Shown: positions 37,112-57,664, numbered from the stretch's first letter. The stretch: DNA of 64,000 nt from Candidatus Poribacteria bacterium (GCA_965217715.1 OZ244563.1:1445083-1509082), one strand, 5' to 3'. Made by a program: numbers and translations. The notes: a model not told the origin generated them from the sequence alone.

Positions 37112-37930
37112 TTAACGCGTTGTTTTGAGATGACCCCAAGTAGTTGTTGCTTTTCCAGCGGGTTCAACGGGAGTAACGAGATCTGGTTGTTGTGAGATAA
37201 AGTCAATCATCTCAATGAGGACTTGACCGCGAGGGAGAGTTCCGTTGTTCCCCTCCTGCATACAAATACCAACACGACCACTGCTATTGTTCAACTTGAT
37301 GATACCCGGGTCAAAGAATCCAGCACCGTTGTCTCCAAAAGCGGCTTCAACGCTCCAGGGATCAACAATCTGCTCACTTTTGAACGGTCGGTTAGAGGTA
37401 TAATCCACCAATGAAGGGGTGAATTTTTTACCAATGTCAGTCGGAGTAATCTGAGTTCCACCACCCCACATATCAGCGTTGATGTTGATAATAGTCTTCA
37501 ATCCATCCTGACCATTAGCGCCGCCACCTTCAGTAACATAGAAGATGTAGTCACAACAATTCAGAATGATATTACCGCCGTAGAGGAACCTTTCAGCAAT
37601 AGAATCGTCAACTTGCACATTCCCGGGTGTGTATAGGGTTGTTGGGAACCATCCGAAAATGATGAGAATGTCTGCCACATCATCGTCAATACGTTCTTCT
37701 GCATACGGACCAATTTCCGCATCGGTTTTATAAACAACTTCGCCAACAGAGGGCACGTCATTTTTCAGGTTGTCAAAGACAATTTTGCGCTGAATATCAC
37801 CATTCTCTTGTGAAATCCATCCCACGCCTTCGCTAAAAATCGCAACATCGCCAAGAGCTGCCCAACTTGATGCTGTGACGGTGAAAGCGAACAGGATCGT
37901 AAATAAGATTAACAATTGTCTAATTTTCAT
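37112..37930 (-). CDS. secreted protein of unknown function, paralog A; C-terminal KATTTWGHLK motif
   Basis: Signal peptide. Shares motifs with 38010-38828 (GGNIxLNxxDYIFYVxxGxGxNGxxGLK, ININADMWGGGT, IVDPWxVExxFGDNGAG). Confidence 0.4.
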   Translation of the reverse strand: MKIRQLLILFTILFAFTVTASSWAALGDVAIFSEGVGWISQENGDIQRKIVFDNLKNDVPSVGEVVYKTDAEIGPYAEERIDDDVADILIIFGWFPTTLYTPGNVQVDDSIAERFLYGGNIILNCCDYIFYVTEGGGANGQDGLKTIININADMWGGGTQITPTDIGKKFTPSLVDYTSNRPFKSEQIVDPWSVEAAFGDNGAGFFDPGIIKLNNSSGRVGICMQEGNNGTLPRGQVLIEMIDFISQQPDLVTPVEPAGKATTTWGHLKTTR

Positions 37931-38009
37931 TATTTCTCCTTATAGATCTAATTCAATGGATCAATGATTTGTAGGGACGTAACGAAAAGTACGTCCCTAC
38001 AGGTACAAG

Positions 38010-38828
38010 TTAAATATCAGATTTGATATATGCCCACGTCGTCGTAACTTTTTCGTTGGGATCAACTGCTGCTGCACCAAGGACATCAGCTAAATAATTG
38101 TCAATCATCTCGGCGAATACTTCACCTCGTGGAAGTCCATCATTACCAGATATTTGATAAGCGATGCCGATTCTGCCACCGGTTTTTGTGTCGTGAACAA
38201 TGGCTGGATCCAGGAGTCCGGCACCATTATCCCCGAAAACAACCTCAACTTCCCATGGATCAACAATCTGAGCTGCCTTGAAGGTACGTGCTGAGGTAAA
38301 GGCGGCAAGACTGGGGGTATATTTCTTACCGTCGTCTGTTGGTTTGATGGCAGTGCCACCAGCCCACATATCGGCGTTAATGTCCATCATGTTTTTCAAG
38401 CCTTGCTCGCCGTTCGTACCAGCACCTTGCACGACGTAGAAGATATAATCCGCAGTATTGAGGAAGATATTTCCACCTTCAAGGAATTTTTCGGCCACAG
38501 AATCGTCAGGTTTCCCATTACCGGGTGGATAGAGTGTCGCTGGAAAGTCACCAAAGGTAACGATAATATCCGCTTGACGGTTGTCGGTGTGGTCTTCTGC
38601 CCATGACCCAATTTCTTTTTCGGTTAATGTGACAACCTTTTTGGGCCTCTTGAGAAGTTCAGTCAATTCTTCACCTTCTCTTGCTGCGGCAGCTTGTCCA
38701 ATCCAGCCAGCTCGTTCAGTATAGATTGCTACTTCTCCCATAGGTGCTGCTATGCTTATACTTGGAGTAGCGGTTATAGCAAGAAAATACCCCAAGATAC
38801 ATGCCGTTAAAATAATCACTTTTTTCAT
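38010..38828 (-). CDS. secreted protein of unknown function, paralog B; C-terminal KVTTTWAYIK motif
   Basis: Signal peptide. Alignable with 37112-37930 over the whole length. Confidence 0.4.
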   Translation of the reverse strand: MKKVIILTACILGYFLAITATPSISIAAPMGEVAIYTERAGWIGQAAAAREGEELTELLKRPKKVVTLTEKEIGSWAEDHTDNRQADIIVTFGDFPATLYPPGNGKPDDSVAEKFLEGGNIFLNTADYIFYVVQGAGTNGEQGLKNMMDINADMWAGGTAIKPTDDGKKYTPSLAAFTSARTFKAAQIVDPWEVEVVFGDNGAGLLDPAIVHDTKTGGRIGIAYQISGNDGLPRGEVFAEMIDNYLADVLGAAAVDPNEKVTTTWAYIKSDI

Positions 38829-39502
38829 GAAAAACTCCTTTTATATAGTTTGTGGTAAAGCTTCCTAAAAAACATTAGGAATCCTCACGCGTTGTGTTAA
38901 TAAATATTAGGTGAGAGTATCCCAACTTCTTGAAATAAAATAGCCCACACATTCTCCAAGTTAAATGGAGAGCGTACGGGCGCGATGAAAGATTGACAGT
39001 TACTACCGATTTTCGCTTGTTCGTTAACCTGCGTATTATTACAAGTGTTAATGCGTTGAGGGGGGGGTAATAACTTAAAGTTAATAAAGCGAGTGATGAG
39101 TGAAGGCGTAGAAGGGATAGAGACACACCAACTATGGTGTTGGCTTATTTTAATTGAGACCGCTTTTTCAACATAGGTATTGATATTAGTATTTTGCATT
39201 TTTTTATCCCCGCAATGTTAAGCATTATTTTGATAACAGTGGGGAACAATTCCCTCATCTTTGCCTAAGTTTCCATCACACAAATTCTAAAACTTGCTTG
39301 CATTATACAAAACTTTACCAAAAATGTCAAGAATTAATTTTAATAATTGTCCAGGACTTACGCATTTTCTCTTAAAGTCCCCTTGATAAGGGGGATTTAG
39401 GGGGTAAAAATACCGAAATAACGGCTTTTTAAGTCCAATATTTCCTTTTTCTGCTAAATTTGCGTAAGTCCTGAATTGTCTATATAGTCAAATCGTATTG
39501 AC

Positions 39503-40795
39503 TTATGGCAGAGCAGGTTTGCTTAACAGGAGTGCAGGAGGCGATTCACCTATCAGAGTCAGTAAAAATTCGACTAAATCATTTACTTCTTGTTCGCTCA
39601 GGTTAAGCGGTTCAAGCGTGCCTTCACGCCTGCCGACAAATCCTGATGGAACGCCACCTGCATTATTAAAGTCAATGATAGATTCTAATGTTGGAAACTC
39701 ACCTGTATGGAAGTACGGGGCAGTGAGCGCTACATTTCGAAGTGTTGGCGTTTTGAACTGTCCTTGATGTTGCCGGGTCGGTTCCAAAAAATCCAGGATT
39801 CTTTGTGGTATATCTGGATTATCGCTATAGATACCGCCGCCATTAAACGGGTTAGCCAAGAGTTGCTTAATGCCATCGTATCTACCTGTATCTGGTGGAA
39901 GTTTTCCCTGAGGGACACCAAGGTTATGAAATTCGTTGTCTGTGAAATTAGGGTTGTCATGGCAGAGAATACAAACACCTTTCCCTATAAAAAGTTTTAA
40001 ACCGCGTTTTGCTTCAATTCCGATCACATCCAAATCACCACCAACATATTGATCGAACGGTGCGTTTCGGCTGATCAAAAGCCGTTCGTAAGCTTCAATT
40101 GCTTTTCCAATATTGGCAAAAACGGTATTAACTGCTATCTTGTCCTTTTCGGACATATTGTCAAACTGGACATCACCCGGTTTGCCCCCAAGCGGGAAGC
40201 GAGTAGAATCTGCTAAATTAGGCAATGGACCAAATACGGCTTCATAATCTTTTTGATACAACCGCTTAATAAGATGTGCATACTGAAGACGTGTGCCTGC
40301 TTGTTCTTTTTCTCCTTCCAGCGCAATTAACGCTTGTGACCACAGTGAATCAGCACGCCCATCCCAAAACTGCCATTTGTTGTAAGCCACATTGAGCAGT
40401 GTCGGGGCGTTCCTCATCCCTCTCCCTGCTCCTAATGAAGTCGCTTCAACGTCTGCGAATCCGTGAAAAGGTGAGTGACATGTTGCACATGCGACAGTGC
40501 CATCTTTTGAAAATCGTTCATCAAAGAAGAACAACTGTCCCAATCGTGCAGCATCAGCATTATCGGCAACGCGATTTGTCCGATTTGGTGGGGGTGTGGC
40601 AGGTAGAGGGGATAAACGTTGAATTACTGCCCATTCACGTTTTGTGAAGATATCTACTTCTATTTCAATATCTTCATTGATTGGTAGATAACTATCATCT
40701 CCACAACCGATAAGAGGTATTGTGATGCAGCATACAATACCAAGAATTATTATACTGATACGCTGTATTTCCGAAGTAGAAATAAGAAATGACAT
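39503..40795 (-). CDS. di-heme cytochrome c peroxidase (CCP/MauG family)
   Basis: Two CxxCH sites (CATCHSP, CILCHDNPNF), N-terminal anchor, 430 aa. Confidence 0.8.
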   Translation of the reverse strand: MSFLISTSEIQRISIIILGIVCCITIPLIGCGDDSYLPINEDIEIEVDIFTKREWAVIQRLSPLPATPPPNRTNRVADNADAARLGQLFFFDERFSKDGTVACATCHSPFHGFADVEATSLGAGRGMRNAPTLLNVAYNKWQFWDGRADSLWSQALIALEGEKEQAGTRLQYAHLIKRLYQKDYEAVFGPLPNLADSTRFPLGGKPGDVQFDNMSEKDKIAVNTVFANIGKAIEAYERLLISRNAPFDQYVGGDLDVIGIEAKRGLKLFIGKGVCILCHDNPNFTDNEFHNLGVPQGKLPPDTGRYDGIKQLLANPFNGGGIYSDNPDIPQRILDFLEPTRQHQGQFKTPTLRNVALTAPYFHTGEFPTLESIIDFNNAGGVPSGFVGRREGTLEPLNLSEQEVNDLVEFLLTLIGESPPALLLSKPALP

Positions 40796-40910
40796 CCTAT
40801 ATTTTCCATGTCTTTTATATTCAAATCCTAAATATACCGACCTTCTGGTAGGCGAAATTTCAAATCGCGCTTACAGCATGGATTTTAGCCTAACAAGTTT
40901 GGAATCGGAA

Positions 40911-41816
40911 TTACTCATCTTTAGGGGCATCCATGGCACATCGGAATCCGATAATTTGTCCACTCGCAACAATGTCATCATATTCTCGGAAAGCACACCG
41001 CATGTGGTCTAAACCGGCAAACCAACTGGCTCCTCGCCAAGATTTTTTCCCCATCCCACTATTTTTGGGCCCTTTTGGATTTTCCCTTGGACTTACCGTA
41101 TAGTAATCCATATCAAACCAGTCTGAGACCCATTCGGCGACATTTCCAACCATATTTAGTGCGCCGTAAGGACTTGCCCCCTTATGAAAACTATCCACAG
41201 GTGCAGCCATCGCAAACCCGTCCAAATGCCCATCAAATTTACCTTCATCGTCAAAGTTGCATTTGGTAGGATCGAATTCATTGCCCCACGGCCAAATACG
41301 TCCATCTGTTCCGCGTGATGCCTTTTCCCATTCCGCCTCAGTTGGCAACCGTTTTCCAACCCATTCCGCGTATGCTATAGCGTCACCCCATGTCACACCA
41401 ACAACTGGCTGATCCGGATGATTGAATTTTGGATTGTCCCAAAAAATCGAATTTCGATGTCCTGTCGCCTCAACAAATTTAGAATAGTCAGCGTTAGAAA
41501 CCTCATATTTATCAATAAAAAAAGCATCTAAATATACCTTATGCTGTGGGAGTTCATCAAGTGGATCCGTCATCGGGTCTTTGTCTGGGTCACTTCCCAT
41601 CAAAAAATCACCGGCAGGAACAAACACCATTCCTTCCGGAATGTCTATTGTACTTTCCTCTTCTTTTGGAAGTTCCTCTAAAATCTCCATTTCATCGGTT
41701 GATTCTGGGACTTTATCTTCAACAAGGAGTTTCTCGTCTCCACCACAACCGTATAGGACGAACATCAGTATCATCAAGAGATATATGAATGATTTCAATT
41801 TAATTTTTATTTTCAT
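40911..41816 (-). CDS. FGE/SUMF1-domain lipoprotein (formylglycine-generating-enzyme-like) 1
   Basis: Lipobox LYGCGG. WEKASRGTDGRIWPWGN, RGASWF and C-terminal GFRCA motifs. Start reset to MKIKIK; the longer ORF overlaps the upstream gene. Confidence 0.75.
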   Translation of the reverse strand: MKIKIKLKSFIYLLMILMFVLYGCGGDEKLLVEDKVPESTDEMEILEELPKEEESTIDIPEGMVFVPAGDFLMGSDPDKDPMTDPLDELPQHKVYLDAFFIDKYEVSNADYSKFVEATGHRNSIFWDNPKFNHPDQPVVGVTWGDAIAYAEWVGKRLPTEAEWEKASRGTDGRIWPWGNEFDPTKCNFDDEGKFDGHLDGFAMAAPVDSFHKGASPYGALNMVGNVAEWVSDWFDMDYYTVSPRENPKGPKNSGMGKKSWRGASWFAGLDHMRCAFREYDDIVASGQIIGFRCAMDAPKDE

Positions 41817-41871
41817 AGTTAGAAGGGTAATTAAGTAGAATTCTGGAAAAACTTTATGTTGCTGCAGAAAT

Positions 41872-42699
41872 TTAAGGTGTTTTTGCACAGCGAAATCCAA
41901 CAGAACTACTGTGATCGCTGCATTGTGCGGGATAAATATAAAAAACTGTGGCACGTGTATCGCCAGGACCGTTAGTCCACGAACCACCACGGATTGTGTA
42001 AATTTCCCCATTAGTCTGCTCGGATTTTCCATGTCCATTTTCAGTTTCAGCGAGGGCACTTGTTACCCATTCCCAAACATTGCCAGACATGTCATGCAGA
42101 CCATAAGGACTAACTCCTTGAGCGAAACTTCCTACCGGGGCAGGATGCATAGCGTATCCATCCAAATTGCCATTCATCTGTCCATCGTCATCAAAATTTC
42201 CCAGTGATGGGTTATAACCATTACCCCAAGGATAGAGCCGACCATCTATACTTCGCGCTGCTTTTTCCCACTCAATATCAGTAGGTAATCTTTTCCCTGC
42301 CCATTCAGCATAAGTTTCAGCATCTTCCCAATTGACGCCAACAACAGGTTGATCAGGTGCATTAAGCGATGGGTTGTCCCAAAATTTTGGTATGCGATGA
42401 CCAGTTTCTGACAAGAATTCCGCGTATTGGCCGTTTGTGACTTCATATTTATCAATATAAAATGCTTCAACAAAAACGACCTGTGAATCCACCTCGTTAC
42501 CAAACGTCAGGTCGGTTTTTTCATTAGTTCCTATAGTTACTTCACCAGCAGGAATTAAAACCATCTCTTCAACATCAATGGTTGTATGATTACCTGATGT
42601 ATCAGGTTGGATAGGGTGTTCTGGGTTATCTTCGCTGCTACAAGCAATTAAACCGATTTTCAACACAAAAATAAAAAATAAAATGAAGTAAAATTTCAT
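41872..42699 (-). CDS. FGE/SUMF1-domain lipoprotein 2
   Basis: Lipobox LIACS. WEKAARSIDGRLYPWGN, RGGSW, and C-terminal GFRCAKTP. Start reset to MKFYF. Confidence 0.75.
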   Translation of the reverse strand: MKFYFILFFIFVLKIGLIACSSEDNPEHPIQPDTSGNHTTIDVEEMVLIPAGEVTIGTNEKTDLTFGNEVDSQVVFVEAFYIDKYEVTNGQYAEFLSETGHRIPKFWDNPSLNAPDQPVVGVNWEDAETYAEWAGKRLPTDIEWEKAARSIDGRLYPWGNGYNPSLGNFDDDGQMNGNLDGYAMHPAPVGSFAQGVSPYGLHDMSGNVWEWVTSALAETENGHGKSEQTNGEIYTIRGGSWTNGPGDTRATVFYIYPAQCSDHSSSVGFRCAKTP

Positions 42700-42753
42700 A
42701 TTATTCTCCATATCAGTTACCAGCATTAAGCTAATTTCGTCTGGATATCTGCC

Positions 42754-43728
42754 CTACTCTGCAGTTTCGGCAGTTAAGGATAGGAACAACTCTTCTAAAC
42801 TCTTCTCGTCAGTACGCATTTCAAGCAGATTCCATCCGTTATCAACGATCATTTTTGCGACTTCTGCTCGGATATCACCTGTCAGAGTGTACTGAATGTG
42901 GAATGTCAACGAATCATCAGTGCCTACTTCAGACTGTTCCGTTGAAACAACGTCAGGGATATTTTTTAGTGTTTCTCCTATTTTATCAGGTTGTTCACCT
43001 GTTACCACAAGGGTAAGTGTCTTTACAGGAGCGACGTTTTCTTCTTCAATCGCGGTTAATCTTGAAACAGCGCGACCGTTCGACAATTGAACATCACCTG
43101 TAATTTTGCCATTACTGATAATCAGTAGCCGTTCACACGTTTGACTTGCTTCGGGGAGAATATGGGTGCTAAAAAGAATCGTGCGCTCTTTGCCAAGTTC
43201 CTTGATTAATTCTCGGATCTCAACAATCTGGCGAGGGTCTAAACCGGAGGTCGGTTCATCAAGAATTAATACTTCGGGTTCATGAATCAAGGCTTGTGCT
43301 AAACCGACGCGTTGCCGAAAACCGCGAGATAATTGCCCAATAATCTGATTTCGTCTTACGGTTAATCCGCAAGATTCAATAGCAATATCCAACCGTTCTT
43401 TGATGTGTTTACGCGAAACGCCTCGGATTTTTGCCATGTAAGCGAGATACTTTGTAACCGTCATTTCAGTGTAAAGTGGAATGTTTTCAGGAAGATATCC
43501 GATCCGTTTCCGCACCTCACGTGATTCCTTGAAAACATCGTATCCTGCAACGAAGACTTTCCCGCTACTTGCAGGCATAAAGCAGGTTAGGATACGCATT
43601 GTCGTAGTTTTGCCGGCACCGTTGGGGCCAAGAAATCCTACAATTTGCCCCTTGTCAACGCTAAAAGATATATCCTTTAGTGCTTGAAACGGTCCGTAAT
43701 TTTTTGAGAGGTTTTGAACTTCAATCAT
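42754..43728 (-). CDS. ABC transporter ATP-binding protein (ABC-2 type, with C-terminal extension); no adjacent permease
   Basis: Walker A GPNGAGKTT, signature LSRGFRQRVGLA, Walker B LILDEPTSGLD. Confidence 0.8.
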   Translation of the reverse strand: MIEVQNLSKNYGPFQALKDISFSVDKGQIVGFLGPNGAGKTTTMRILTCFMPASSGKVFVAGYDVFKESREVRKRIGYLPENIPLYTEMTVTKYLAYMAKIRGVSRKHIKERLDIAIESCGLTVRRNQIIGQLSRGFRQRVGLAQALIHEPEVLILDEPTSGLDPRQIVEIRELIKELGKERTILFSTHILPEASQTCERLLIISNGKITGDVQLSNGRAVSRLTAIEEENVAPVKTLTLVVTGEQPDKIGETLKNIPDVVSTEQSEVGTDDSLTFHIQYTLTGDIRAEVAKMIVDNGWNLLEMRTDEKSLEELFLSLTAETAE

Positions 43729-44041
43729 TTTGGCTATTTCTTACGTTGAATTCATCTGCTGTATTGTAAAGCAAAGATAGACGCTATTGCTATTACAATG
43801 GTTGCTAAATTGATAATATTCCATATTTCACGTAATGCGAAGACTCTGATGATCGGGTTGTAGATGATAACCATAAGAACTAAAACGATACTCCAACCGA
43901 ATTTACCTATGACTATGGAGCGGATCGTGAGATATATAAAAACTGCACAACAGATCTATCTTAGATAAGTGTAGTTACGCATAAGGATTACTGGGATTGA
44001 GTGCAATTATAGTAAATTATGTAAATAAGTTCACATATATT

Positions 44042-44108
44042 CTGTAGGAGCGATCTCCGAATCGCGACTAAACCACTGGTAATCGGGAATCGGAGTTCCC
44101 TCCTACAG
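44042..44108. repeat. family-B MITE-like element with perfect terminal IRs ctgtaggag...ctcctacag
   Basis: ctgtaggagcgatctccgaatcgcgac-taaaccactggt-aatcgggaatcggagttccctcctacag. A reverse-orientation copy lies at 54937-54997. Confidence 0.8.
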
Positions 44109-44242
44109 TTCAGATGTAAAGTTAATTGTAGAATCCACTATAATAGTAAAAGAAACGAGTTGTGCTAAATAACTATATGTAGAACTCTATTTCACAAAAG
44201 AAGGTGTTTCGAAAGTCATTATCCTATATTTATATGGTCTTC

Positions 44243-44388
44243 AGTCCCGACAAATGCCACACGCGCATTTGGCGTTGATTTGGTAGGGACGATATGTTTA
44301 TAGAAAAAGGTCGGACGAGCACTTTTTAGTCCCGACAAATGCCACACGCGCATTTGGCGTTGATTTGGTAGGGACGATATGTTTATAG
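44243..44388. repeat. two direct 61-bp copies (44243-44303, 44328-44388) of agtcccgacaaatgccacacgcgcatttggcgttgatttggtagggacgatatgtttatag
   Basis: Each copy contains the hairpin caaatgc...gcatttg and the gtagggacgatatgttt module that also appears at 57954, 58233 and 58286. Confidence 0.8.
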
Positions 44389-44473
44389 CACAAATGCAAA
44401 TATATGTGAAAACCAACAAAACATATTGTTAACTGGCACAAGTCGTATAATTAACCATAAATGTCAGTGTGTG

Positions 44474-45196
44474 TCAAAGCTCACCGATGCAGAACACGGT
44501 ATTCTTTGCTTCTAAACTCCGAATTTCGGAATAGTGGTAAACTTGGGTAACTTCCACTCCATTTTTAATGATGGCAGTAGGACGTTCTATAACGAAGTCA
44601 GCGAAGTGCAATGCGTTGAAAGCAACGTAAGCGAGTCTGAACGTCTCAATCTGCCGATCGTATCGTTTTGACAGATCTGGAAATAGAACAATTCCTGTAT
44701 CAACTTGGTAGATGCCTGCGTTTTCATCTATGTTCATCGTTTTAACTGGACACTCGATAATTGCCCGCTGATGTGTATTGGTATCCCATATTTCTGTGTG
44801 CGTTACGATGGGTAGACATTTTTGTGTCGCCTCAAAAATAGCTGCGTTGCTATCAAGGACCCGGACCTGCGATGCATCTTCAACATCAAACAAGGGGCCT
44901 CCCCAATAATCCTGCGCCGGTCTATACTCTACGTAGTTATCGTTACAGTAAGCATGTCTTCTGAATACCGCTATATGTTCTTCACCAAAAACAGGGAGGA
45001 AGTCATAGTTTGGATTTGTGAAGAGATTTTTCTCCGCAAAGGTGTGTTCACTCTTACACGAACCACATTGGTAATAATCGCTGAAACTTCCATCTGTGTT
45101 ATCTATGATGCGGCATCGAGATTCGACCCAAAAGCGGGGGGCATTTCCGTTGCCAACAGAGTTGATAAAAGAAAGTCCATAATCAAGGCAATTCAT
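44474..45196 (-). CDS. hypothetical protein (240 aa), Cys-containing, no signal peptide
   Basis: ORF only. Lies inside the inverted-repeat-bracketed 44044-45526 segment. Confidence 0.35.
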   Translation of the reverse strand: MNCLDYGLSFINSVGNGNAPRFWVESRCRIIDNTDGSFSDYYQCGSCKSEHTFAEKNLFTNPNYDFLPVFGEEHIAVFRRHAYCNDNYVEYRPAQDYWGGPLFDVEDASQVRVLDSNAAIFEATQKCLPIVTHTEIWDTNTHQRAIIECPVKTMNIDENAGIYQVDTGIVLFPDLSKRYDRQIETFRLAYVAFNALHFADFVIERPTAIIKNGVEVTQVYHYSEIRSLEAKNTVFCIGEL

Positions 45197-45456: not shown

Positions 45457-45526
45457 GTCGCGATTCGGAGATCGCTCCTACTGAAGATGGGTCTATCTTT
45501 GTAGGAGGGAACTCCGATTCCCGATT
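45457..45526. repeat. inverted copies of both halves of the 44042 element (45457-45481 matches 44044-44068; 45500-45526 matches 44081-44107)
   Basis: Perfect reverse-complement matches of 25 and 27 nt. Confidence 0.8.
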
Positions 45527-48558: not shown

Positions 48559-48804
48559 TGTATACCTCGTTCTTATCTGGCTATTTGCGGAGTAACATCC
48601 GCTGTGTTGACGTGAAATCCCCGGCAGTGAACGTATAAAAATAAGCCCACTTGCGATGGGTTCACCACGCTCGTTTCTGCCATCCCAATAGGCTGCACGA
48701 CTTTTGCTACCGTACAGACCTGCTTCCTGATTTTCTAAACGTTAACGTCCGAATCAGATCGCTATCTACTGAATAGATACGCAACGTCACTTCCACAGCT
48801 GCCC

Positions 48805-49528
48805 CTAACCGATACGGGAACCACGTCTCCGGATTAAATAGGTTCGGGTAGTTTTGAAAAACCGCTGTCGTTTTAATCTTTCCCCAGGTTGTGGGTGGTT
48901 GGCATAGGTGTGACGTGCCACAGCATCACTGTGCCATCCAAACTCCCACTCGCGAGTGTTTGTCCATCCGGACTGAACGCTACGCCATAGACCTGACCCG
49001 TATGTCCTGTGAGTGTTTTCTTGTGTTGACCCGTTTTCGCATCCCATAAATGGATAGTCTTGACCCAACTCCCACTCGCGAGTGTTTGTCCATCCGGGCT
49101 GAACGCTACGCTAAAGACCCAAACCGTATCTTCTATGAGTGTTTTCTGTGTTGACCCGTTTTCGCATCCCATAAATGGATAGTCTTGTGATCCGAACTCG
49201 CGGGTGTTTGTCCATCCGGACTGAACGCTACAATACGGCCCCGATCCGTATGTCCCGTGAGCAAATCAAGTGCTTTACCAGTCGCTACGTCGTATATCCA
49301 AATACCAGCATCGCTCACAACTTCAAGACACGTCCCATCTGGAAAATATGTAAACCCGTTTATATTGCCTTTACCGAGGCGTGCTTTAGCACCCTCGGGT
49401 AAACCCGGCGTTGTGTAGTCTTGGGCGAAAGCAGTGGGTAAATGTACATTGAAAATTAAAAATCCTGCCAAAACAATCGAAAATAATAACTTTGTTTTTA
49501 TCAAAATCGTTCCTTTTATTTTTTCCAA
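48805..49528 (-). pseudogene. secreted WD40-repeat protein broken across three frames (ORFs 49133-49528, 48873-49172, 48805-49068)
   Basis: Signal peptide then WD repeats (IHLWDAKTGQH, VAFSPDGQTLASGS). About 126-bp DNA-level tandem repeats (cccactcgcgagtgtttgtccatccggactgaacgctac appears 3 times) carry indels. Confidence 0.5.
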
Positions 49529-51054
49529 AAACTTCGGTCTAAACTCCGATATTGTATTGCCTCAGAGACGTGTGTCGTTTCTATATTCGGATTTTCCTCC
49601 AGATCAGCGATGGTACGTGACACTTTCAAGATGCGGTCATAAGCTCTTGCGCTCAATCCCAACTGATTGATGGCAACGCGAAGCAGGTCCTGTGCTTGCG
49701 ATTCAATTTTACAATATTCACGAATCTGCTTGGATTCCATATTAGCGTTCGCGTGTATTGTGGTGCTATCAAAACGTTGATGCTGAATTCGGCGTGCAGC
49801 TTCTACCCGTTCGCGCACGGTTGCTGACGGTTCACCTGTGACATCCGCCGAAAGTTCGGCATATTTCACTGCGGGCACCTCAACTTGGATATCAATCCTA
49901 TCCAATAGCGGTCCTGAAATCCGAGAAACATAAGTTTGAATTTGGTTAGCGGAACATTTGCATTCGCGATTTGGATCGCTGAAAAAACCGCAGGGACACG
50001 GGTTCATCGCTGCAACCAGCATAAAATTGGCAGGGTAGGTAAGCGATGCAGCTGCACGCGAAATCGTCACATGACCATCTTCCAATGGCTGCCGCATGAC
50101 TTCAAGCACGTTCCTGCGAAATTCGGGAAGTTCGTCAAGGAAGAGAACACCGTTATGTGAAAGACTCACCTCACCGGGACGCGGGACTTTTCCACCACCA
50201 ATCAAACCTGCGTCAGAAATTGTGTGATGCGGCGAACGAAACGGACGCGTCGCTACCAACGGAGTATCGTTTGGCAGAATACCGACAATACTCTGGATTT
50301 TTGTCGTTTCTAAAGATTCGTCTATAGACAACATTGGCAGAATCGAAGAAATTCGTTTAGCAATCATGGTTTTACCGGAACCGGGTGGACCAATCATAAT
50401 CAGATTGTGTCCACCTGCCGCTGCTACCTCAACTGCTCGTTTCACATGTTCTTGTCCTTTTACATCAACTAAATCAAGGAGGGATTCCGCGTCTCCTTTT
50501 TCGACCGTAGTGCTGAGTGTCGGGGGTTCCGGCGGTATATCCTTTGCAGAATTCAGGAATGCGGCAGCTTCCGTTAGACTTTCTACAGGGTAAACGTTCA
50601 ACCCTTCAACAATTGCTGCCTCTTTAGCATTTTCAGCGGGCAGGATGAGATTCTGCACGCCATTGTCTTTTGCTGCTATGGCAATAGGGAGTCCACCTTG
50701 TATGCTGCGAATGTTCCCATCAAGTGCAAGCTCACCCAATACCATAGTGCTTTCAAGATTAACTAAATCTACCTGATTCGTGGCAGCCATTACACCGATG
50801 GCGATGGGAAGATCAAATGCTGACCCTGCTTTGCGGATATGTGCAGGTGCTAAATTGGCGGTAATTCGGCTGGGAGGGAAGTAAAATCCTGAGTTTTTTA
50901 TTGCCGCTGTAACCCGATCTCTGCTTTCCTTGATAGCACTGTCCGGTAAGCCAACGGTGCTGAATGCGGGGAGACCATCCGCTACATCCACCTCTACTGT
51001 GACAATATAAGCATCAATTCCAAGTACTGCGCTGCTTAGGACAGTTGCTAGCAT
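49516..51054 (-). CDS. YifB/ComM-family Mg-chelatase-like AAA+ ATPase
   Basis: N-terminal [23 protein letters not shown], Walker A GPPGSGKT, Lon-like N-terminal domain. 512 aa. Confidence 0.85.
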
Positions 51055-51154
51055 ACGATTGTTTCCTTCTCAAATTTGTCGAATATTTCCGTTCAAAAGG
51101 TTTTTTATTTTGCCCAATTTCAAATCCGATTCAGGTTGTTACAAATGATTCCCT

Positions 51155-52174
51155 CTAACGTGCATCCTCAGTAAGTTTATGGAGTGTTTGGAGCTGTCTT
51201 TGGTCAGATATTACAAAGAGCGCATCCCCCGCTTCAATTTTCAAATCTCCTGAAGGGTTATAGATATATGTTCCATCCTTGCTGCGAATAGCTATCACAA
51301 CTAACCCTGTTTCTTCCTTTATAGTGGCTTGTTCTATTGTAATTCCATCAAGTTTAGAGTCAGGTTGGATAATAGATTCAGCGAATCGTGTTGTTTGTCG
51401 ACTTACTTGCATTTTAGCAAAAAAATCAATTAAATGCGGCTCAAGTATGCCAGAAGCGAGTCGAATTCCGCCGATATGGTCTGGTAAAACGACTTCATCC
51501 GCCCCTGCGCTGACAAGTTTGTCCGGGGAATTATGTTCCACTGCTTTAGAGGCAACCCGCAGGGTGGGATTAAGGTTTTTGGCAGAAATGACGACAAATA
51601 GATTATCTTGATCACGACTTAAACAAGCAACAAGCCCCTTGGCACGTTCAACACCTGCACGGATAAGCACATCATCATCGGTTGCATCACCGTGTAGGTA
51701 TAAAAAATCATGGATTTCGGCGAGATGTTCCAATCGTTCCTCATCCACTTCTATCCCGACAAAACTGGCTTCTGCCTTGAGCATCTCCTCAAGTACATGC
51801 ACGCCAGTGTCCCCTATTCCACAGATAATATAATGGTTAGATAGTTTATCAACAGTTCGTATCATTTTTCTTTGTTTGAAAAAACTCAATAATTGTCCTT
51901 CAATCAGGATGGCAGTTGTGATGGTAATGCAATAGACGAACATTCCAACACCGCCGATAAGTAGAAACATGGTGAAAATTTGTCCGGCTTTACTCATCTC
52001 CCCATCATCATAACCCGCTGTTGTTACCGTAATTAAGGTCATCCAAACTGCGTCAAGTAGATCCCAATCTTTATGGGGATTGTCCTTTTCGAGTATGGTA
52101 TAACCGACAGTACCGATGATGAGGAGGCCAAACAACAGACTGAAGGCGATGATGATCTTGCGTTGATAATTCAT
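51155..52174 (-). CDS. potassium-channel-like protein with RCK/TrkA-N and TrkA-C domains; non-canonical filter TTAGYDDG
   Basis: Two TM helices plus a pore loop. RCK domain with GxGxxG (ICGIGDTG). Confidence 0.6.
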   Translation of the reverse strand: MNYQRKIIIAFSLLFGLLIIGTVGYTILEKDNPHKDWDLLDAVWMTLITVTTAGYDDGEMSKAGQIFTMFLLIGGVGMFVYCITITTAILIEGQLLSFFKQRKMIRTVDKLSNHYIICGIGDTGVHVLEEMLKAEASFVGIEVDEERLEHLAEIHDFLYLHGDATDDDVLIRAGVERAKGLVACLSRDQDNLFVVISAKNLNPTLRVASKAVEHNSPDKLVSAGADEVVLPDHIGGIRLASGILEPHLIDFFAKMQVSRQTTRFAESIIQPDSKLDGITIEQATIKEETGLVVIAIRSKDGTYIYNPSGDLKIEAGDALFVISDQRQLQTLHKLTEDAR

Positions 52175-52240
52175 TATCCTCCGTTTTAATGTCGTCTATG
52201 TGCGACTTACAGATACCTTGTCTATTACCCATCAGAGCTT

Positions 52241-52645
52241 CTAATTAGGAGTACTGTTTGCTTCTTCGTTTTCCGTTTCTCCTGTCTCAGTTGAGATGTC
52301 TTCCTCGTTTGGTGTATCTTGTTCTGCCGTATCATGAGATTCGTCCTGTTTAAGTGTATCTTGCTGGCTATTGACAGCACGGACATATCCTATTCTCAAA
52401 TCATAGAGAGAATTTGCTAAAAAATTGGATTCAGGGGCGGTTAAGTTTCCTTTTGTTTTTTCTTCTAACATCTCTAAGGTATCAATCATTCGTTTTGCTA
52501 AACCGAGATTGACAATAACTGTTTCTGTTTCCGGGTCTCGGAAGCCCTGAAGATAGAGATGCGCGGTTGTGATCAGGTCAGAGATAAAAGATACAAAATC
52601 AACTGGCGGGAGTTGAACCTCTTCCTGAGTTGTGTTTTCTTCCAT
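52241..52645 (-). CDS. acidic hypothetical protein (134 aa)
   Basis: ORF only; Glu/Asp-rich tail. Confidence 0.3.
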   Translation of the reverse strand: MEENTTQEEVQLPPVDFVSFISDLITTAHLYLQGFRDPETETVIVNLGLAKRMIDTLEMLEEKTKGNLTAPESNFLANSLYDLRIGYVRAVNSQQDTLKQDESHDTAEQDTPNEEDISTETGETENEEANSTPN

Positions 52646-52728
52646 TTAACTTCTCCTGATTTGACGCAATGATTCCGATGAGATATAATCGGAAGTTTTA
52701 TAGAAATTCTTTTATGGATTAAACAAAA

Positions 52729-53097
52729 TTATTCATCAAAAATAATTATTTGTGTGAGTAGACTTCCCGCTTGGTTGTTGTTGTTTGGGTTTTCGTTCAT
52801 AGCCAAAAAAATAACACCATCTGCGGGGGCAGGATTATCGTAGCGTGACCCGACAGCGAAAACGGCACTTCCGATTTTTGCGATGAGCGCACCAACGTTA
52901 GTACCAGGAAGAAGAAAACCATCTCCAGCAGGGGTTTTAGGCACACCGTCAGCACCGCACCACCCTGTTCGATTTTGTAGGTCAGGCGACCATGCACCAT
53001 CGGCATCAATTACAAGACGTTGTCCTTTTTTCACGCGTACATAACTTTCTTGCCAAACTGGACTCGGACGAGATGTCCGAATAACTGTTAACGCCAT
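52729..53097 (-). CDS. PA-IL (LecA)-like lectin-domain protein
   Basis: GALIAKIGSAV versus LecA GALVMKIGNSG. DADGAWSPD versus AAGWASYGP. C-terminal Asn-rich loop then IIIF. Confidence 0.35.
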   Translation of the reverse strand: MALTVIRTSRPSPVWQESYVRVKKGQRLVIDADGAWSPDLQNRTGWCGADGVPKTPAGDGFLLPGTNVGALIAKIGSAVFAVGSRYDNPAPADGVIFLAMNENPNNNNQAGSLLTQIIIFDE

Positions 53098-53160
53098 TCA
53101 ATTCTCCTTGCTACTTTGAGATTTGGACGGTCGTTGCGATATGACTGACCGTCCAATTTC

Positions 53161-53784
53161 TTAATTTTCGCTGCGTTCGCGAATTGTAATATTCGTTATT
53201 TTATCATTCTTTTCAATACTGTCTAAAACATCTAAACCTTTGACAACTTTACCAAGGATAGTCCAATCTCCATCCAATTCGATTGCATCTTTACAGATCA
53301 TGAACTCGTCACCATTAGCAAGGTTTGATCCCTCTTCAGTTATCATTAGCACTGTCCCTTTTACAAGAGGATGCTCGCTTGTTTCGATGGAGAGCGTGTC
53401 ATCAGCAAAACTTGAACCGGCTTGTATAAAGAGTTCCTGAACCTCGTGAAATTTCTCACTTCGGTAAAACCCGCGGCTCGCGTTAGTGATAAAGTTTTTC
53501 GAAGCTTGTGGTGCATCAGATGCAAAAAATTCGAATTCAATATTACCTTTTGCCGTTTCAATCACAGCTATTGCGTTTGCTGGGTCAATCATTGGCTTGG
53601 CTTCTGGCTCTGTTTTTTCACTATCTTCTGCAGGTTTAATTACCTCTTGTGGGGTTGTTGTTTCTGTTGTGGATTCCGATTCCTTTTGGTCTTGCTGAGC
53701 ACAACCGGACACAAAAGTAACAAATAGACACATTAACACCAAGATTATGACTGGGAATTGATTAATTTTCTGCTGCCTTAACAT
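53161..53784 (-). CDS. divergent cyclophilin-like lipoprotein
   Basis: Lipobox VSGCAQQ. IEFEFFASDAPQASKNF and FHEV resemble a cyclophilin core with substitutions. Confidence 0.45.
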   Translation of the reverse strand: MLRQQKINQFPVIILVLMCLFVTFVSGCAQQDQKESESTTETTTPQEVIKPAEDSEKTEPEAKPMIDPANAIAVIETAKGNIEFEFFASDAPQASKNFITNASRGFYRSEKFHEVQELFIQAGSSFADDTLSIETSEHPLVKGTVLMITEEGSNLANGDEFMICKDAIELDGDWTILGKVVKGLDVLDSIEKNDKITNITIRERSEN

Positions 53785-54349
53785 ATTTTGACTTTACCTC
53801 CAATCGGATTGTAGTCATGACATCGCCTATCTGTAAAAGATCGACGACATCCATTCCTTGAATGACGCCACCGAAAGTGGTATATTGTCCGTCGAGATGA
53901 GGCTGTGGTTTGAGGCAGATATAGAACTGGCTTCCGGACGAATCGGGGATATCTGCACGTGCCATCGCTACCGTACCTCTTAGGTGCTTCCGCTGATTCG
54001 GATTTGTGTATTCGTCCTTAATGGTCCAACCGGGACTACCTGTTCCATCACCTCTCGGACATCCTCCTTGAACAATATTCAAACCGGGTGCGTCAACTAT
54101 TCGATGAAATGTTAATCCATCGTAGAACTTCTGTTTTATCAATTTTTTGAAGTTTTCGACTGCCACAGGGGCAGACTCAATATAGAACTCAATCACGAAT
54201 GTCCCTTTTTTAGTTTTAACGACTGCGACTTCCTCCTTAGGAACTTCGACCTGCTCCTTAGGATCTTTGCTTGAGAAAAAGGGGAGCACGCAACCCGTTA
54301 AGGTGAGTGTAACTATAATCTGTGGTAATAGATGAGCCAATGTCTTCAT
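53762..54349 (-). CDS. cyclophilin-type peptidyl-prolyl cis-trans isomerase (secreted)
   Basis: FVIEFYIESAPVAVENFKKL...FHRIV...QGGCP...SGSQFYICL...LDGQYTTFGGVIQGMDVV. Confidence 0.8.
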   Translation of the reverse strand: MKTLAHLLPQIIVTLTLTGCVLPFFSSKDPKEQVEVPKEEVAVVKTKKGTFVIEFYIESAPVAVENFKKLIKQKFYDGLTFHRIVDAPGLNIVQGGCPRGDGTGSPGWTIKDEYTNPNQRKHLRGTVAMARADIPDSSGSQFYICLKPQPHLDGQYTTFGGVIQGMDVVDLLQIGDVMTTIRLEVKSKYVKAAEN

Positions 54350-54499
54350 TATTTTCCTTTGCTATATTAACGTGAGTTCGGCATAAGCAATTTTGGGTAT
54401 TGGTGCGGTTAGAAAACTACACCTACCGTGGCTATGAGAATTGAATTCAAAGCATTAAGTACTTCATATCTCTTACACCGAACTCACGTTATATTATAG

Positions 54500-54644
54500 C
54501 GTATCTCATAAATCGTGCAAGAGAAGTTTTATCCATTAGACTTAAAATAAGCAGCGTTTGTAGTAGCACAATTCATTGTGCGTCTAAACGTTTTTATGTT
54601 GAACTCATGTGATCTGAATTAACAAATCGTATTTATGAGATACG
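54500..54644. repeat. family-C MITE-like element (TIR cgtatctcataaat / atttatgagatacg; core gtttgtagtagcacaattcattgtgcgt)
   Basis: A direct copy sits at 56750-56882 on the other side of gene 55022-56593. Confidence 0.7.
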
Positions 54645-54936
54645 GCCTACATTCTGTAGGAGTGAACTCACGGGCGCGAACACAAAATTGTTGGGTATCA
54701 CCAGCTCAACCCATAGGTGTCAATTTTAGGATCTATCTCCCTGTTGGAGGGGTTTTTAACCCCGATATAACCGCTTGAATCTCACAAAATCGGGCTTACA
54801 AGGAACTACAACAAGAGAAAATCCAGCAATTTTTTCTTAAGTTGACAGCTATGGGTATCGCCAGCTCAACCCAACCTACGAATTCTCGGGCAAAAAGTTG
54901 GATATCGCTAACGCTCCACCCAATCTACTGTTAAAC

Positions 54937-54997
54937 TGTAGGAGGAAACTCCGATTCCCGACAAAAAACGGGTCGCGACCAGGAAGTCGCTCCTACA
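54937..54997. repeat. family-B MITE-like element (reverse-orientation relative of 44042-44108)
   Basis: ctgtaggaggaaactccgattcccga...gtcgcgaccaggaagtcgctcctacag. Confidence 0.75.
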
Positions 54998-55021
54998 GAA
55001 TATAGAACGAACCACCTGCAT

Positions 55022-56593
55022 TTAATTAGATTCGACCTGTGCTACATTTTCCTCATACTCAAAAATACGTTCGGGACTGGACAGGTTCAAGATAGCAAAC
55101 CCTTCGTATTCGTGGACGGTGTAGGTATGCCTACCCCGCTGCACCTCATATACCCGTATTTTTTCGGTGATTAAAACAACAATCTCATCCGGAGCCCTCT
55201 CACCGTATAATATCGTATCACCGATGACAGGATCGCCATCAAGACTTTCACTCCAAGGCTGAGGGTTTAATAGAATACGCACTTCAACGCGGTCCTCCGG
55301 ATCACCGATGGCTTTGTAGAGTCCTGTTATCTTATAGTTTCTACGCACAACCGACTCAGTCCGTATCCGATATCTGCCTAACACTTTCAATTCAGGTGTT
55401 AGCGAGATTTCAGGTAGGTTCTTGTTCGGGTCTACGTCTCCGACTTGTGGTGGCGGTGCATCTGCTGGTCTTTCAGTGTAAAAGCGCGAGTTACCAAGAA
55501 CGAAATGATCGCAGTGTCTACCATCATCGGCATCTGTCATTATCAACGTCAATTTCTCTGTGCCTGCGGGAATATCAAAACCGACTCTCGTTATTTCTTC
55601 ACCCGTTATGACACCAGAATCGTAGATCTCAATACCATCTGCTAAACAATAAAGCTGAACAGTGGCACTGCCTTCGCAGGGGTTCGGCAGCAGCACAGCA
55701 CTATCAAAATAAACGAAGTCGTGATCGGACAAGTCAAATTCCATGAAACTTCTCACAGCTGCATAGATCCAATGTTGGAAAGTATTAATATCCCAGTCCA
55801 GAAAACCGCTCTGCCTTTTTGTGATTTCTCCACCGAGTATTTTTTCCCAAGTGCCATCGTTGTGATGAGTCCAATCATTGCTATGGTTAGTCGGTCTAAT
55901 TGCATTTTCACTCTCAGAATAATGTGAGAGGTATGCACCTGTATACGTGCTTTTACCTTCAGGCACTTCGAGCAACAGGCGTGTGTTGCCGATAATATAA
56001 TGATTACAGCTGCCATCACCGACATCAGCAACTTTGAGCGTCAGTGTTTTGGTGCCAACAGGAATTTCAAATTCCATCTTGATAATATCTTTGGTTGTGA
56101 TAGCACCTGTTTTGTAGACATGAACACCGTCCGCTAACCATATCACATCTATGGCGGCACCACCGTCACAAAGATGGGGACGCACGACAGCACCTTCAAA
56201 AAATACATAATCATGATCTTCTAAAGCGAAATCAAATTTACTTTCGGCGTGTGAGAAGAACCAATAGTCAAAAGTATTGAGCAAACTACTACTTACAGAG
56301 AAAGCATTGGACGGTCTTTGTGATAACTCCTCACCTTTCACTTTCTCCCAAATTCCGTGTTCCCAACCTGCCCATTCACTGCTATCGTTAATAGGTATCA
56401 TCGCTTCAGGACTTTCAGAGGATAATGATAGATATCGTTCAGAAGGTCCTACATCTCCATCCATCATCACATCCATGGCAGACTTCTGCATCTCGTTACA
56501 GCCAGCAGAAAAACAACAGATGACAACCAAACTAACAAATACTGCAGATAAGTAACGATTAAATTTCATTTGTAAATTCCTTCTAATACGCAT
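55022..56593 (-). CDS. secreted lipoprotein with two tandem homologous about 200-aa beta-sandwich-like domains (possible carbohydrate-binding modules)
   Basis: Lipobox FSAGC. Internal duplication: W(A/T)xxxxGxWEK...LSDHD(Y/F)V(F/Y)F...P..C(D/E)G.A...L.ADG...Y.(T/S)G.IT....I...F.IP.GT..LTL...D..DG.....H(Y/F)..GN.R. Confidence 0.4.
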   Translation of the reverse strand: MRIRRNLQMKFNRYLSAVFVSLVVICCFSAGCNEMQKSAMDVMMDGDVGPSERYLSLSSESPEAMIPINDSSEWAGWEHGIWEKVKGEELSQRPSNAFSVSSSLLNTFDYWFFSHAESKFDFALEDHDYVFFEGAVVRPHLCDGGAAIDVIWLADGVHVYKTGAITTKDIIKMEFEIPVGTKTLTLKVADVGDGSCNHYIIGNTRLLLEVPEGKSTYTGAYLSHYSESENAIRPTNHSNDWTHHNDGTWEKILGGEITKRQSGFLDWDINTFQHWIYAAVRSFMEFDLSDHDFVYFDSAVLLPNPCEGSATVQLYCLADGIEIYDSGVITGEEITRVGFDIPAGTEKLTLIMTDADDGRHCDHFVLGNSRFYTERPADAPPPQVGDVDPNKNLPEISLTPELKVLGRYRIRTESVVRRNYKITGLYKAIGDPEDRVEVRILLNPQPWSESLDGDPVIGDTILYGERAPDEIVVLITEKIRVYEVQRGRHTYTVHEYEGFAILNLSSPERIFEYEENVAQVESN

Positions 56594-56749
56594 ATATTCT
56601 ATTTTTCTAAGTATTGAGGTTTGCTCGTTCTGAGTATTCTTGCCGTTCTATAGGTCTAAAAGGGCACGACACGTGTTTATGCCGAATTCTCCCTAAATGA
56701 GTATGTTCAGGATATTATATCCCAACAAAATTATCAAGGAAGTTACAGT

Positions 56750-56882
56750 CTATCTCATAAATAGTAGAAGGACTTTGTAAACCCAATTTATAAAACACCG
56801 TGTTTGTAGTTGCACAATTCATTATGCGTTATGGTAAGGTTAAACACTGTGAAACCAGCAAATTCGGATTTATGAGATACGC
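56750..56882. repeat. family-C MITE-like element (direct copy of 54500-54644)
   Basis: tctatctcataaat ... gtttgtagttgcacaattcattatgcgt ... atttatgagatacgc. Confidence 0.7.
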
Positions 56883-56887
56883 TCTAA

Positions 56888-57664
56888 TTATTTAGATTTA
56901 AGGCGCGCCCAAGTTGTCGTTAATTTGTCTTGGGGAAGAACATCCGCCGCATTAGGATTATCCATATCTATTCTGAGTTCATCCTCGGTTAACGCATAGT
57001 TGTACATTTTGATTTCGTCAAGGGCACCGTTGACAAAACGTTGGTTTCCCCCGCGTGCGCCAATAAAAAGTGGTTCATTGTTAGCAGTAAGCTTTCCCTT
57101 ACATTCCAATTCTTTATTGAGTTCACCATCAATATACAACTTGATTGTGGTGCCATCCCACGTGCCTGCAAGAAAGTGCCACGTTTCATCTTGTATATTG
57201 TCGCCAATATTATGTTCTCGACAATTATCGGGTAAATCGAAAAATTGAAGGAGTGAACCGCCTCGGTAGAACGCTGCAAGCGTATACAAACCCGCCTTCC
57301 AAGTGGTTCCTTTTTCAACACCGGTTTGCTCATTGCCTGCCGGGCGGAGATTTGCCCAGTGTTCAATTGTAATGCCATCAACCATATCCAAACTGTCATG
57401 GTCAGAAATTTCTGCCCATGTTTTTCCATCAAAATCTACTGCTTTCCCAAATTTACCGTCAACCAAATCGGGGTTGCCCTTAAAGGTCGCATCATTACCA
57501 AATTTAGAGAGATCTTCTGCAACGTCTCCTTTCAACTCATCAAAAGAGAGGTACAAAACAAGATCATTTGCAGAAAAAATCTCGGTTGTGAAAATAACAG
57601 TGAACAACATTACACACACTGCAATGTTAGTTAGAACTCTATCGCGTTTTGCCCAGTATTTCAT
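56888..57664 (-). CDS. secreted LamG-like (concanavalin-A-like lectin/glucanase, Laminin_G_3-type) protein; C-terminal KLTTTWARLK motif
   Basis: The motif LDEIKMYNYALTEDEL matches the LamG_3 D(E/D)VRIYNRALS-like signature. N-terminal hydrophobic leader. Confidence 0.5.
   Translation of the reverse strand: MKYWAKRDRVLTNIAVCVMLFTVIFTTEIFSANDLVLYLSFDELKGDVAEDLSKFGNDATFKGNPDLVDGKFGKAVDFDGKTWAEISDHDSLDMVDGITIEHWANLRPAGNEQTGVEKGTTWKAGLYTLAAFYRGGSLLQFFDLPDNCREHNIGDNIQDETWHFLAGTWDGTTIKLYIDGELNKELECKGKLTANNEPLFIGARGGNQRFVNGALDEIKMYNYALTEDELRIDMDNPNAADVLPQDKLTTTWARLKSK

Follow-up and report, generated by a model that had tools for sequence, protein, structure and literature searches.

A conserved C-terminal tag on unrelated exported proteins of Candidatus Poribacteria, probably an address or attachment label for the cell envelope

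What would make three exported proteins of different architecture end in the same few residues? The question is raised by a 64-kb stretch of genomic DNA from Candidatus Poribacteria (GCA_965217715.1 OZ244563.1:1445083-1509082; hereafter the window, whose positions are counted from its first letter), in which three genes, here A, B and C, had been predicted to share the extreme C-terminal motif K-x-T-T-T-W-x-x-[LI]-K. Translation of the open reading frames (ORFs) recovered all three at the predicted coordinates, all on the minus strand, and each does close with K-x-T-T-T-W-[GA]-x-[LI]-K, two or three further residues and the stop. Gene A (37112-37930) encodes an exported protein of 272 residues with a ThuA / class-I glutamine-amidotransferase-like fold; it opens with the signal-peptide-like sequence MKIRQLLILFTILFAFTVTASSWA (37859-37930) and ends in GKATTTWGHLKTTR and a stop, without any C-terminal module besides the tag itself, VEPAGKATTTWGHLK plus TTR (37115-37168). 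Gene B (38010-38828), likewise exported, 272 residues long and tag-only at its C-terminus, ends in EKVTTTWAYIKSDI and a stop, its tag being VDPNEKVTTTWAYIK plus SDI (38013-38066). Gene C (56888-57664) encodes an exported LamG (Laminin_G_3) protein of 258 residues that ends in DKLTTTWARLKSK and a stop, again with a tag only, VLPQDKLTTTWARLK plus SK (56891-56941).

A and B are tandem paralogs (48% identity) separated by only 79 bp and match no Pfam or NCBIfam model, and C belongs to PF13385 (Pfam search, E=4.7e-24, residues 79-230); a hydrophobic, signal-like segment opens each of the three proteins. In the six-frame translation of the window, TTTW occurs three times, each time at the C-terminus of A, B or C, and a degenerate DNA pattern for K-x-T-T-T-W-[GA]-x-[LIVMF]-K gave three matches in the window against 0.00 expected from 100 shuffles. 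The encoding DNA had been said to differ in each case, and indeed the three coding 30-mers vary at many synonymous sites, so that the match is one at the level of protein.

The full motif proved to be longer than first described, reading phi-A-V-[ED]-P-x-G-K-L-T-T-T-W-[GA]-x-[LIV]-K, then one to five polar residues and the stop. Counted from the tryptophan, it has L, T or F at -12, A at -11, V at -10 (95%), E or D at -9, P or A at -8, G or D at -6, K at -5 (95%), L at -4, T-T-T from -3 to -1, G or A at +1, L, I or V at +3 and K at +4, and A, B and C match this profile at all key positions. V(-10) and P(-8) lie outside the pattern used for searching, so the conservation there is unconstrained by it. 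The residues after K(+4) number one to five, rarely up to 12, with a mode of three, and are rich in R, S, K, T and Q; none of 163 tagged proteins ends exactly at K(+4).

How far does the motif reach beyond the window? A scan of GTDB with one genome per species (~185,000) for DNA encoding K-x-T-T-T-W-[GA]-x-[LIVMF]-K, at any position, returned at least 118 loci, ~95% of them from Candidatus Poribacteria among the matches listed. Every poribacterial match among the 138 listed (about 130) lies 1-12 residues from the stop, with a mode of three, and five matches in Bradyrhizobium, Synechococcus, Anaerophaga, Moraxella and a Rhodobacteraceae metagenome-assembled genome (MAG) fall at arbitrary positions or in tiny ORFs. 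A looser motif, sought in 0.92 Mb of poribacterial DNA, occurred 175 times in ORFs of at least 150 residues, and 170 of these occurrences lie within 12 residues of the stop, which bears out the expected enrichment at the extreme C-terminus. By this looser motif 163 of 839 non-overlapping ORFs are tagged, in a sample chosen for its tags; the window has three tagged genes among about 55. Perfect tag-only proteins were also found on contigs binned elsewhere, namely in a Planctomycetota MAG (L064, JACNGQ010000400.1), in a sponge MAG labelled 'Pseudomonadota' (L035, JAPPIL010000222.1) and on three contigs of uncultured bacteria (L031, L063 and L074); these may be mis-binned poribacterial contigs, true occurrences in other phyla or products of horizontal transfer.

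The coding 30-mers are unique in 135 of the 138 matches, and every T position draws on all four Thr codons, so that selection acts on the peptide and not on a copied DNA repeat. Gene A has 116 homologs, and all sources that name an organism name Candidatus Poribacteria. Full-length members of this family end in K-x-x-[TV]-T-W-[GA]-x-[LI]-K, zero to four further residues and a stop down to 39% identity, and in an alignment of 36 sequences V255, K260 and W265 never vary and T264 and K269 hardly do, while the linker that precedes them is variable. The tag of B is kept in B-type orthologs (P0065-P0111), and the tail DKL[AT]T[TV]WARLK plus two residues is kept in 114 of 120 orthologs of C, down to ~59% identity. 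In the AlphaFold2 (AF2) model of A (predicted template modelling score 0.83; the top Foldseek matches are ThuA-like proteins, distant ones), the last ~20 residues have a predicted local distance difference test score (pLDDT) of only 35-57, and the tail is therefore predicted to be flexible. That the tag is a lineage-specific, intrinsically flexible linear motif of ~17-20 residues in Candidatus Poribacteria and environmental relatives is well supported.

With the tails removed, the carriers of the tag fall into at least 26 blastp clusters, so that the claim of different architectures stands: the motif is confined to no single paralogous family and its presence on C is not chance. By Pfam these carriers include LamG (the largest cluster), CBM9, CBM_4_9, F5/8-type-C, GH43_C2 (ConA-like), 3-keto-disaccharide hydrolase/DUF1080, PA14, HmuY, a PD40 propeller and DUF4960, and several clusters have no Pfam match; the median length is 266 residues, with a few giants of 968-1681 residues. 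Signal-like, hydrophobic N-termini are present in 146 of 161 tagged ORFs (91%) versus 178 of 544 untagged ones (33%), an enrichment among signal-peptide proteins such as the original prediction had proposed to look for. Seven tagged carriers have a lipobox and four an RR motif, and none has an internal transmembrane (TM) segment. The carriers are small, soluble, Sec-exported proteins, mostly lectin-like or carbohydrate-binding modules (CBMs), and it is well supported that the tag is a portable module on at least 26 unrelated passenger families, kept by selection at the protein level. Cargo peptides of encapsulins or microcompartments are ruled out by the 91% of carriers with a signal-like N-terminus. 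We also rejected the beta-signal of outer-membrane proteins, as the last residues of tag-only proteins are mostly R, K, Q or N, not F or W, and the carriers are soluble lectin-like or alpha/beta proteins.

Is the tag one of the known C-terminal signals? It had been said to match none, a statement that stands for PEP-CTERM, LPXTG and GlyGly-CTERM and needs amending for type IX secretion systems (T9SS), whose type-A C-terminal domains (CTDs) the tag adjoins. Like LPXTG, PEP-CTERM, GlyGly-CTERM and PGF-CTERM, the tag is short, conserved, near the C-terminus, spread over unrelated exported families, restricted to a lineage and present many times per genome. Sortase and exosortase signals, however, comprise a motif, a TM helix and a basic cluster, whereas the tag is a motif plus one to five polar residues with no hydrophobic segment; as neither a TM helix nor a basic cluster follows it, the tag is not of this type, and NCBIfam models of sortase/exosortase-type signals gave no match on A, B or C even at E<=1. 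No model in Pfam or NCBIfam (release 20, June 2026) covers the tag. Searches of the full-text literature returned no description of the motif, the matches to TTTWG being degenerate DNA primers, and no relevant report of a T9SS or a secretion signal in Poribacteria.

The likeness to the T9SS type-A CTD (TIGR04183 / PF18962 Por_Secre_tail; FlgD_ig-like) goes further. Both elements are C-terminal on signal-peptide proteins of many architectures, and the Sec signal expected of T9SS cargo is present in tagged proteins (hydrophobic N-terminus in 146/161, and in A, B and C too); moreover, the tag occurs directly ahead of CTDs, and the two are alternative C-terminal modules on the family of gene A. 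The tag differs in being only ~17 residues long, unstructured and located upstream of the CTD model, and tag-only proteins are free of a CTD. A, B and C have no Por_Secre_tail, FlgD_ig or TIGR04183 hits and only 17-20 residues after the passenger domain, and translations of the downstream DNA revealed no CTD-like sequence following any of them.

The physical link between tag and CTD is seen in three poribacterial loci (L043, L053 and L115) that encode a ~620-residue FG-GAP/ASPIC protein in which a CTD comes directly after a perfect tag (VTSVEPTGKLSTTWGKVKAAE-IFQNYPNPFNPETWIPY). When metagenomes were scanned for W-G-x-phi-K with N-[YF]-P-N-P-F-N-P no more than 3-10 residues behind it, at least 120 loci with tag and CTD came up, mostly from freshwater sediment, lakes and groundwater among the matches listed, and the same loci hold 35 tag-only ORFs. 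In the 106 unique tag+CTD sequences among the matches listed, V(-10) is found in 79% (plus I in 15%), P(-8) in 67%, G(-6) in 57%, K(-5) in 86% and T(-1) in 78%. As these positions were unconstrained by the scan and reproduce the tag, the motif is the same, and one profile describes both the 163 tag-only and the 106 tag+CTD sequences. The gap between K(+4) and NYPNPF is six residues in 91 of these 106, and in 74 of them the distance from W to the stop is 101 residues.

Tag+CTD proteins score 31-41 bits with TIGR04183, versus a cutoff of 23. This curated CTD model of ~72 positions starts at YPNPF, eight residues past K(+4) and 12 past W, and thus leaves the tag out. In the AF2 model of a tag+CTD unit, the CTD body is a confident beta-sandwich (pLDDT 84-97) and the tag segment is unstructured (about 60 or less), the Ig-like beta-sandwich fold thus being absent from the tag and present only in the CTD body. 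A structure search showed that the fold of this body resembles FlgD, the CTDs of PorU and PorZ and the translocon-bound CTDs of RemA and RemZ. Judged by its sequence, what follows the tag in tag+CTD proteins is a true sorting domain of type A, and homology of the tag to the conserved element six residues ahead of such CTDs is well supported. Canonical T9SS cargo is without a conserved pre-CTD motif (PMC5445135).

These data bear on the notion that the tail is no signal at all and instead an integral structural element, closing the passenger fold as its last beta-strand or opening the CTD as its first. The T/W-rich alternation is strand-like and the spacing to the CTD is fixed, as such a strand would have it. 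Yet the same tail is found on alpha/beta (ThuA-like), jelly-roll (LamG, CBM), propeller and HmuY folds, it is unstructured in the AF2 models both on the family of A and ahead of the CTD, and the CTD model begins only eight or more residues later. We consider this explanation barely tenable. The variant that makes the tag simply the opening strand of the poribacterial CTD was ruled out by the start of TIGR04183, by the unstructured tag and by the nearest tagless CTDs, which are described next.

On the passenger domain of gene A, single-domain proteins end in the tag and many multidomain relatives end in a CTD; one member, P0063, has a dockerin and a CTD in the tag's place, and another group ends in a Cys-rich, dockerin-like sequence. 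One passenger with differing C-terminal modules is the pattern by which sorting signals have been recognised, as in the 'choice-of-anchor' families of NCBIfam. The 120 CTDs closest to that of P0063 all follow the sequence ...TPKETALLP and none of them has the tag, which indicates that the tag is not required for CTD function. It is not general in poribacterial CTDs, and three classes of proteins are accordingly distinguished: tag-only, tag+CTD and CTD-only. The tag comes closest to a C-terminal sorting or attachment signal. Its ties to the T9SS type-A CTD are both physical and evolutionary, yet it does not belong to that family. The motif itself, where it occurs and how it is linked to the CTD are solidly established and apparently undescribed.

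Several observations concern the giant and fragmentary relatives of these proteins. The family-A domain, which has no Pfam model, is repeated up to eight times in giant proteins (set P0357-P0504; P0367 has 4446 residues), and one group of these giants has a Cys-rich terminus (...YLF...PP.P.P.CG.DP....C....C) that recalls the dockerin-like C-termini of planctomycetes. The best CTD matches (P0237-P0356) are 'proteins' of 93-165 residues that consist of nearly the CTD alone, many of them starting at an internal Met, and are probably fragmented gene calls from large dockerin/CTD proteins. This Met lies within a conserved helical segment of ~40 residues ahead of the CTD, QWL.QAQ.LNLTDATSQRGI.FLEQLLA.LTPKETALLP, which is a second and different junction element.

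The window holds a tag+CTD arrangement of its own. The original prediction correctly counted three perfect occurrences and overlooked a fourth, degenerate one, PPTTWGKIK (48872-48898, minus strand; looser scan of the window), which is without K(-5) and L(-4) and sits six residues upstream of a CTD. Three-frame translations place it in a frameshifted gene (48584-49495, minus strand) encoding a signal peptide, WD40 repeats, the degenerate tag and a T9SS/FlgD-type CTD. The latter, a type-A / FlgD-Ig-like domain identified by profile search and broken by frameshifts (NYPNLFNPETWFPY...AAYWDGRNERGEPIASG...YFYTFTAGDFTSTQRMLLRK; 48584-48853, minus strand), matches PF13860 FlgD_ig (E=4.5e-7), CHU_C (7e-4) and the NCBIfam PorU-CTD region (1.4e-6), all scores computed on the reconstructed sequence. 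With ~3 WD40 blades and at least four frameshifts in ~900 nt, the gene (48584-49528 on the minus strand in this count) is either a pseudogene in decay, a repeat region collapsed in assembly or a run of sequencing errors.

Could the tag-only proteins simply be former tag+CTD proteins, their CTD lost in evolution or cut off by an assembly frameshift, with a functionless junction peptide left behind? Tag-only tails do resemble a junction cut before the CTD (e.g. WGDVKRTLR and stop versus WGQVKRTEL followed by YQNYP), and frameshifted genes do exist in the window. Against this, CTD-like coding within 420 nt downstream, in any frame, was found for none of 157 tag-only genes, with the positive control at 113 of 113, which disposes of tag-only genes as frameshifted tag+CTD genes. 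Over more than 100 independent assemblies, and at identities as low as 39%, both the stop and the motif are kept while the linker varies; furthermore, the motif is on at least 26 families and the tail keeps its length of one to five residues without drift. The relic explanation is largely refuted and retains next to no credibility.

What, then, might the tag do? A conserved, flexible segment near the C-terminus that always has at least one residue after it fits a linear recognition site for an envelope factor, and a tail that is shared across exported proteins and also sits before a removable secretion domain is probably an address or attachment label for the cell envelope, one that is undescribed. 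In the T9SS that have been characterised, the sortase-like cysteine peptidase PorU removes the CTD after translocation across the outer membrane and attaches anionic lipopolysaccharide (A-LPS) to the new C-terminus (PMC5445135). After the poribacterial motif there are only two options, either a variable stretch of one to five residues (rarely as many as 12) or a CTD that begins at a fixed distance. By analogy with T9SS, mature proteins of both classes would end in the tag, tag-only proteins resembling tag+CTD proteins that have been trimmed beforehand. An envelope factor, most likely a PorU-like transpeptidase and otherwise a receptor, would recognise the exposed tail near the free C-terminus; for a transpeptidase the CTD or the short tail would serve as leaving group, and the tagged protein would be fastened to the cell envelope or kept there, displaying its carbohydrate-binding module. 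We tentatively favour the reading that a transpeptidase attaches tagged proteins to the envelope with the short tail or the CTD as leaving group. A more specific version, in which the tag is a new sorting signal without a TM helix or CTD, a PorU-like or new transpeptidase cleaves after K(+4) and attaches roughly 5% of the proteome, mainly lectin-like proteins, to the envelope, and sigma-factor fusions couple expression to the pathway, is distinctly doubtful.

Environmental loci encode the fusions in question, ~1000-residue proteins comprising an extracytoplasmic function (ECF) sigma-70 factor (regions 2 and 4), one TM-like segment, WD40/NHL repeats, the tag and a T9SS type-A CTD (L155:5040-8063(-), L206:6468-9512(-), L221:2063-5017(-), L182:974-3922(-), L186:1169-4240(+) and others). 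It is odd that a sigma/anti-sigma-like fusion anchored in the inner membrane should bear a 'secretion' CTD at its periplasmic end; the fusions may couple transcription to the state of the sorting pathway.

Several points weigh against a transpeptidase. For PorU of Porphyromonas gingivalis, the specificity for the cleavage site is low, with no conserved motif upstream of it (PMC5445135). Tag-only proteins are without a CTD for crossing the outer membrane by T9SS, so that their meeting with a surface sortase is unexplained, and CTDs can do without the tag, as the 120 closest to that of P0063 illustrate. Many environmental tag+CTD proteins are inner-membrane-anchored fusions of an ECF sigma factor, a TM segment and WD40 or NHL repeats, with a cytoplasmic N-terminus, and thus fit poorly with export and cleavage. 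In addition, the flexibility of the tag in the AF2 model of the tag+CTD unit comes from a shallow alignment of six sequences. A co-occurring sortase or protease had been expected, and within the scope of our search (the 64-kb window and 8-kb loci around tagged genes) no sortase, exosortase, rhombosortase-like enzyme or candidate receptor was found among window genes or neighbours of tagged genes, nor any T9SS component, and the recurrent neighbours included no protease either. The FGE-sulfatase ORFs of the window reach 82-124 bits against GldK/PorK, where the cutoff is 350. As no partner enzyme was found, a sorting or processing function is an inference, as are cleavage, attachment, the partner and the final location of the proteins. 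Sorting enzymes are usually not adjacent to their substrates.

The neighbours that recur around tagged genes are GFO/IDH/MocA, TPR/FG-GAP, enolase-like, PhyH, FGE-sulfatase, WD40, PQQ and SDR proteins, which are the phylum's abundant metabolic and repeat families. They matter for another explanation, in which the tail is a non-covalent docking peptide that binds a common envelope receptor or scaffold much as dockerin binds cohesin, displaying lectin/CBM modules uncleaved; candidate receptors would be a beta-propeller, a TPR protein or a CTD-like Ig domain. The motif is conserved and flexible, with hydrophobic and aromatic anchor positions, its carriers are mostly single carbohydrate-binding modules of the type docked on scaffolds, P0063 has a dockerin and CTD replacing the tag, and WD40, PQQ and TPR proteins are plentiful around tagged genes. 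Like dockerin, the tag is a C-terminal addition to many small carbohydrate-binding or enzymatic domains; unlike it, the tag is a linear peptide of 17 residues without dockerin sequence or calcium-binding repeats, and no cohesin-like partner is known. Dockerin_1 matched neither A, B or C nor any of 20 representative carriers, only the tagless P0063. Docking leaves unexplained why the motif is always 1-12 residues from the stop or before a removable CTD and never before another domain, and why none of 163 proteins ends at K(+4); nor was a receptor found in the window or the 8-kb loci, the neighbours being simply those abundant families. We regard docking as unlikely, though as a contender to be taken seriously.

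A covalent tether of another kind is suggested by the two lysines of the tag, 95-100% conserved in an exposed C-terminal tail. K(-5) or K(+4) might be cross-linked by an L,D-transpeptidase to peptidoglycan or another envelope polymer, which would fix the proteins in the periplasm, a location compatible with all tagged classes including the sigma-propeller fusions. The precedent is the C-terminal Lys of Braun's lipoprotein (Lpp), likewise a conserved Lys in the exposed tail of an exported envelope protein. The reactive Lys of Lpp, however, is terminal and on a lipoprotein, whereas at least one residue always comes after the Lys of the tag (of 163 proteins, none ends at K(+4)), its carriers are no lipoproteins and it is a far longer motif; moreover, there is no link between the tag and L,D-transpeptidases, and the conserved W, V and T would have no role. 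Such a tether appears improbable. The remaining probability belongs to mechanisms beyond those considered here.

Other genes of the window encode a K channel, cyclophilins, an NPCBM protein, a PLD protein and an HtrA-PDZ protease. Directly downstream of C, on the same strand, lies a gene for a 523-residue protein with an NPCBM/NEW2 domain (55022-56593, minus strand), another glycan-binding protein, which has neither tag nor CTD. Two tandem cyclophilin peptidyl-prolyl isomerases (53161-54349, minus strand) lie ~3 kb from C, and an HtrA/DegQ-type serine protease with a PDZ domain (62658-63773, minus strand), a domain that binds C-terminal peptides, lies ~5 kb from it; these are quality-control genes of the usual periplasmic kind. 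On the strand of B and A, and upstream of them, two overlapping FGE-sulfatase ORFs of 382 and 284 residues (40911-42726, minus strand) are flanked by genes for a MauG/MbnH-like di-haem peroxidase (39503-40795) and for an ABC ATPase (42754-43728). An ENA contig of 3x coverage (L001:5229-6922) has this region divided into three FGE-sulfatase genes, and the arrangement suggests frameshifts or tandem paralogs. As candidates for GldK/PorK these genes were rejected, their similarity being generic to the fold and far below the cutoff.

For the biology of the phylum, the tag provides a simple sequence rule that predicts a set of exported envelope or surface proteins, amounting to ~5% of genes in the sampled DNA (~1 in 20), in uncultivated and ecologically important sponge symbionts. 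The carriers, mostly carbohydrate-binding modules, are candidates for the recognition of host or matrix glycans. The T9SS-type CTD here has a conserved and separable upstream element that is able to function without the CTD, which to our knowledge has no counterpart in the T9SS of Bacteroidota. LPXTG, PEP-CTERM and the CTDs of T9SS each revealed a dedicated machine for envelope assembly, and the tag opens the way to a search, by phylogenetic profiling and proteomics, for its own partner enzyme or receptor.

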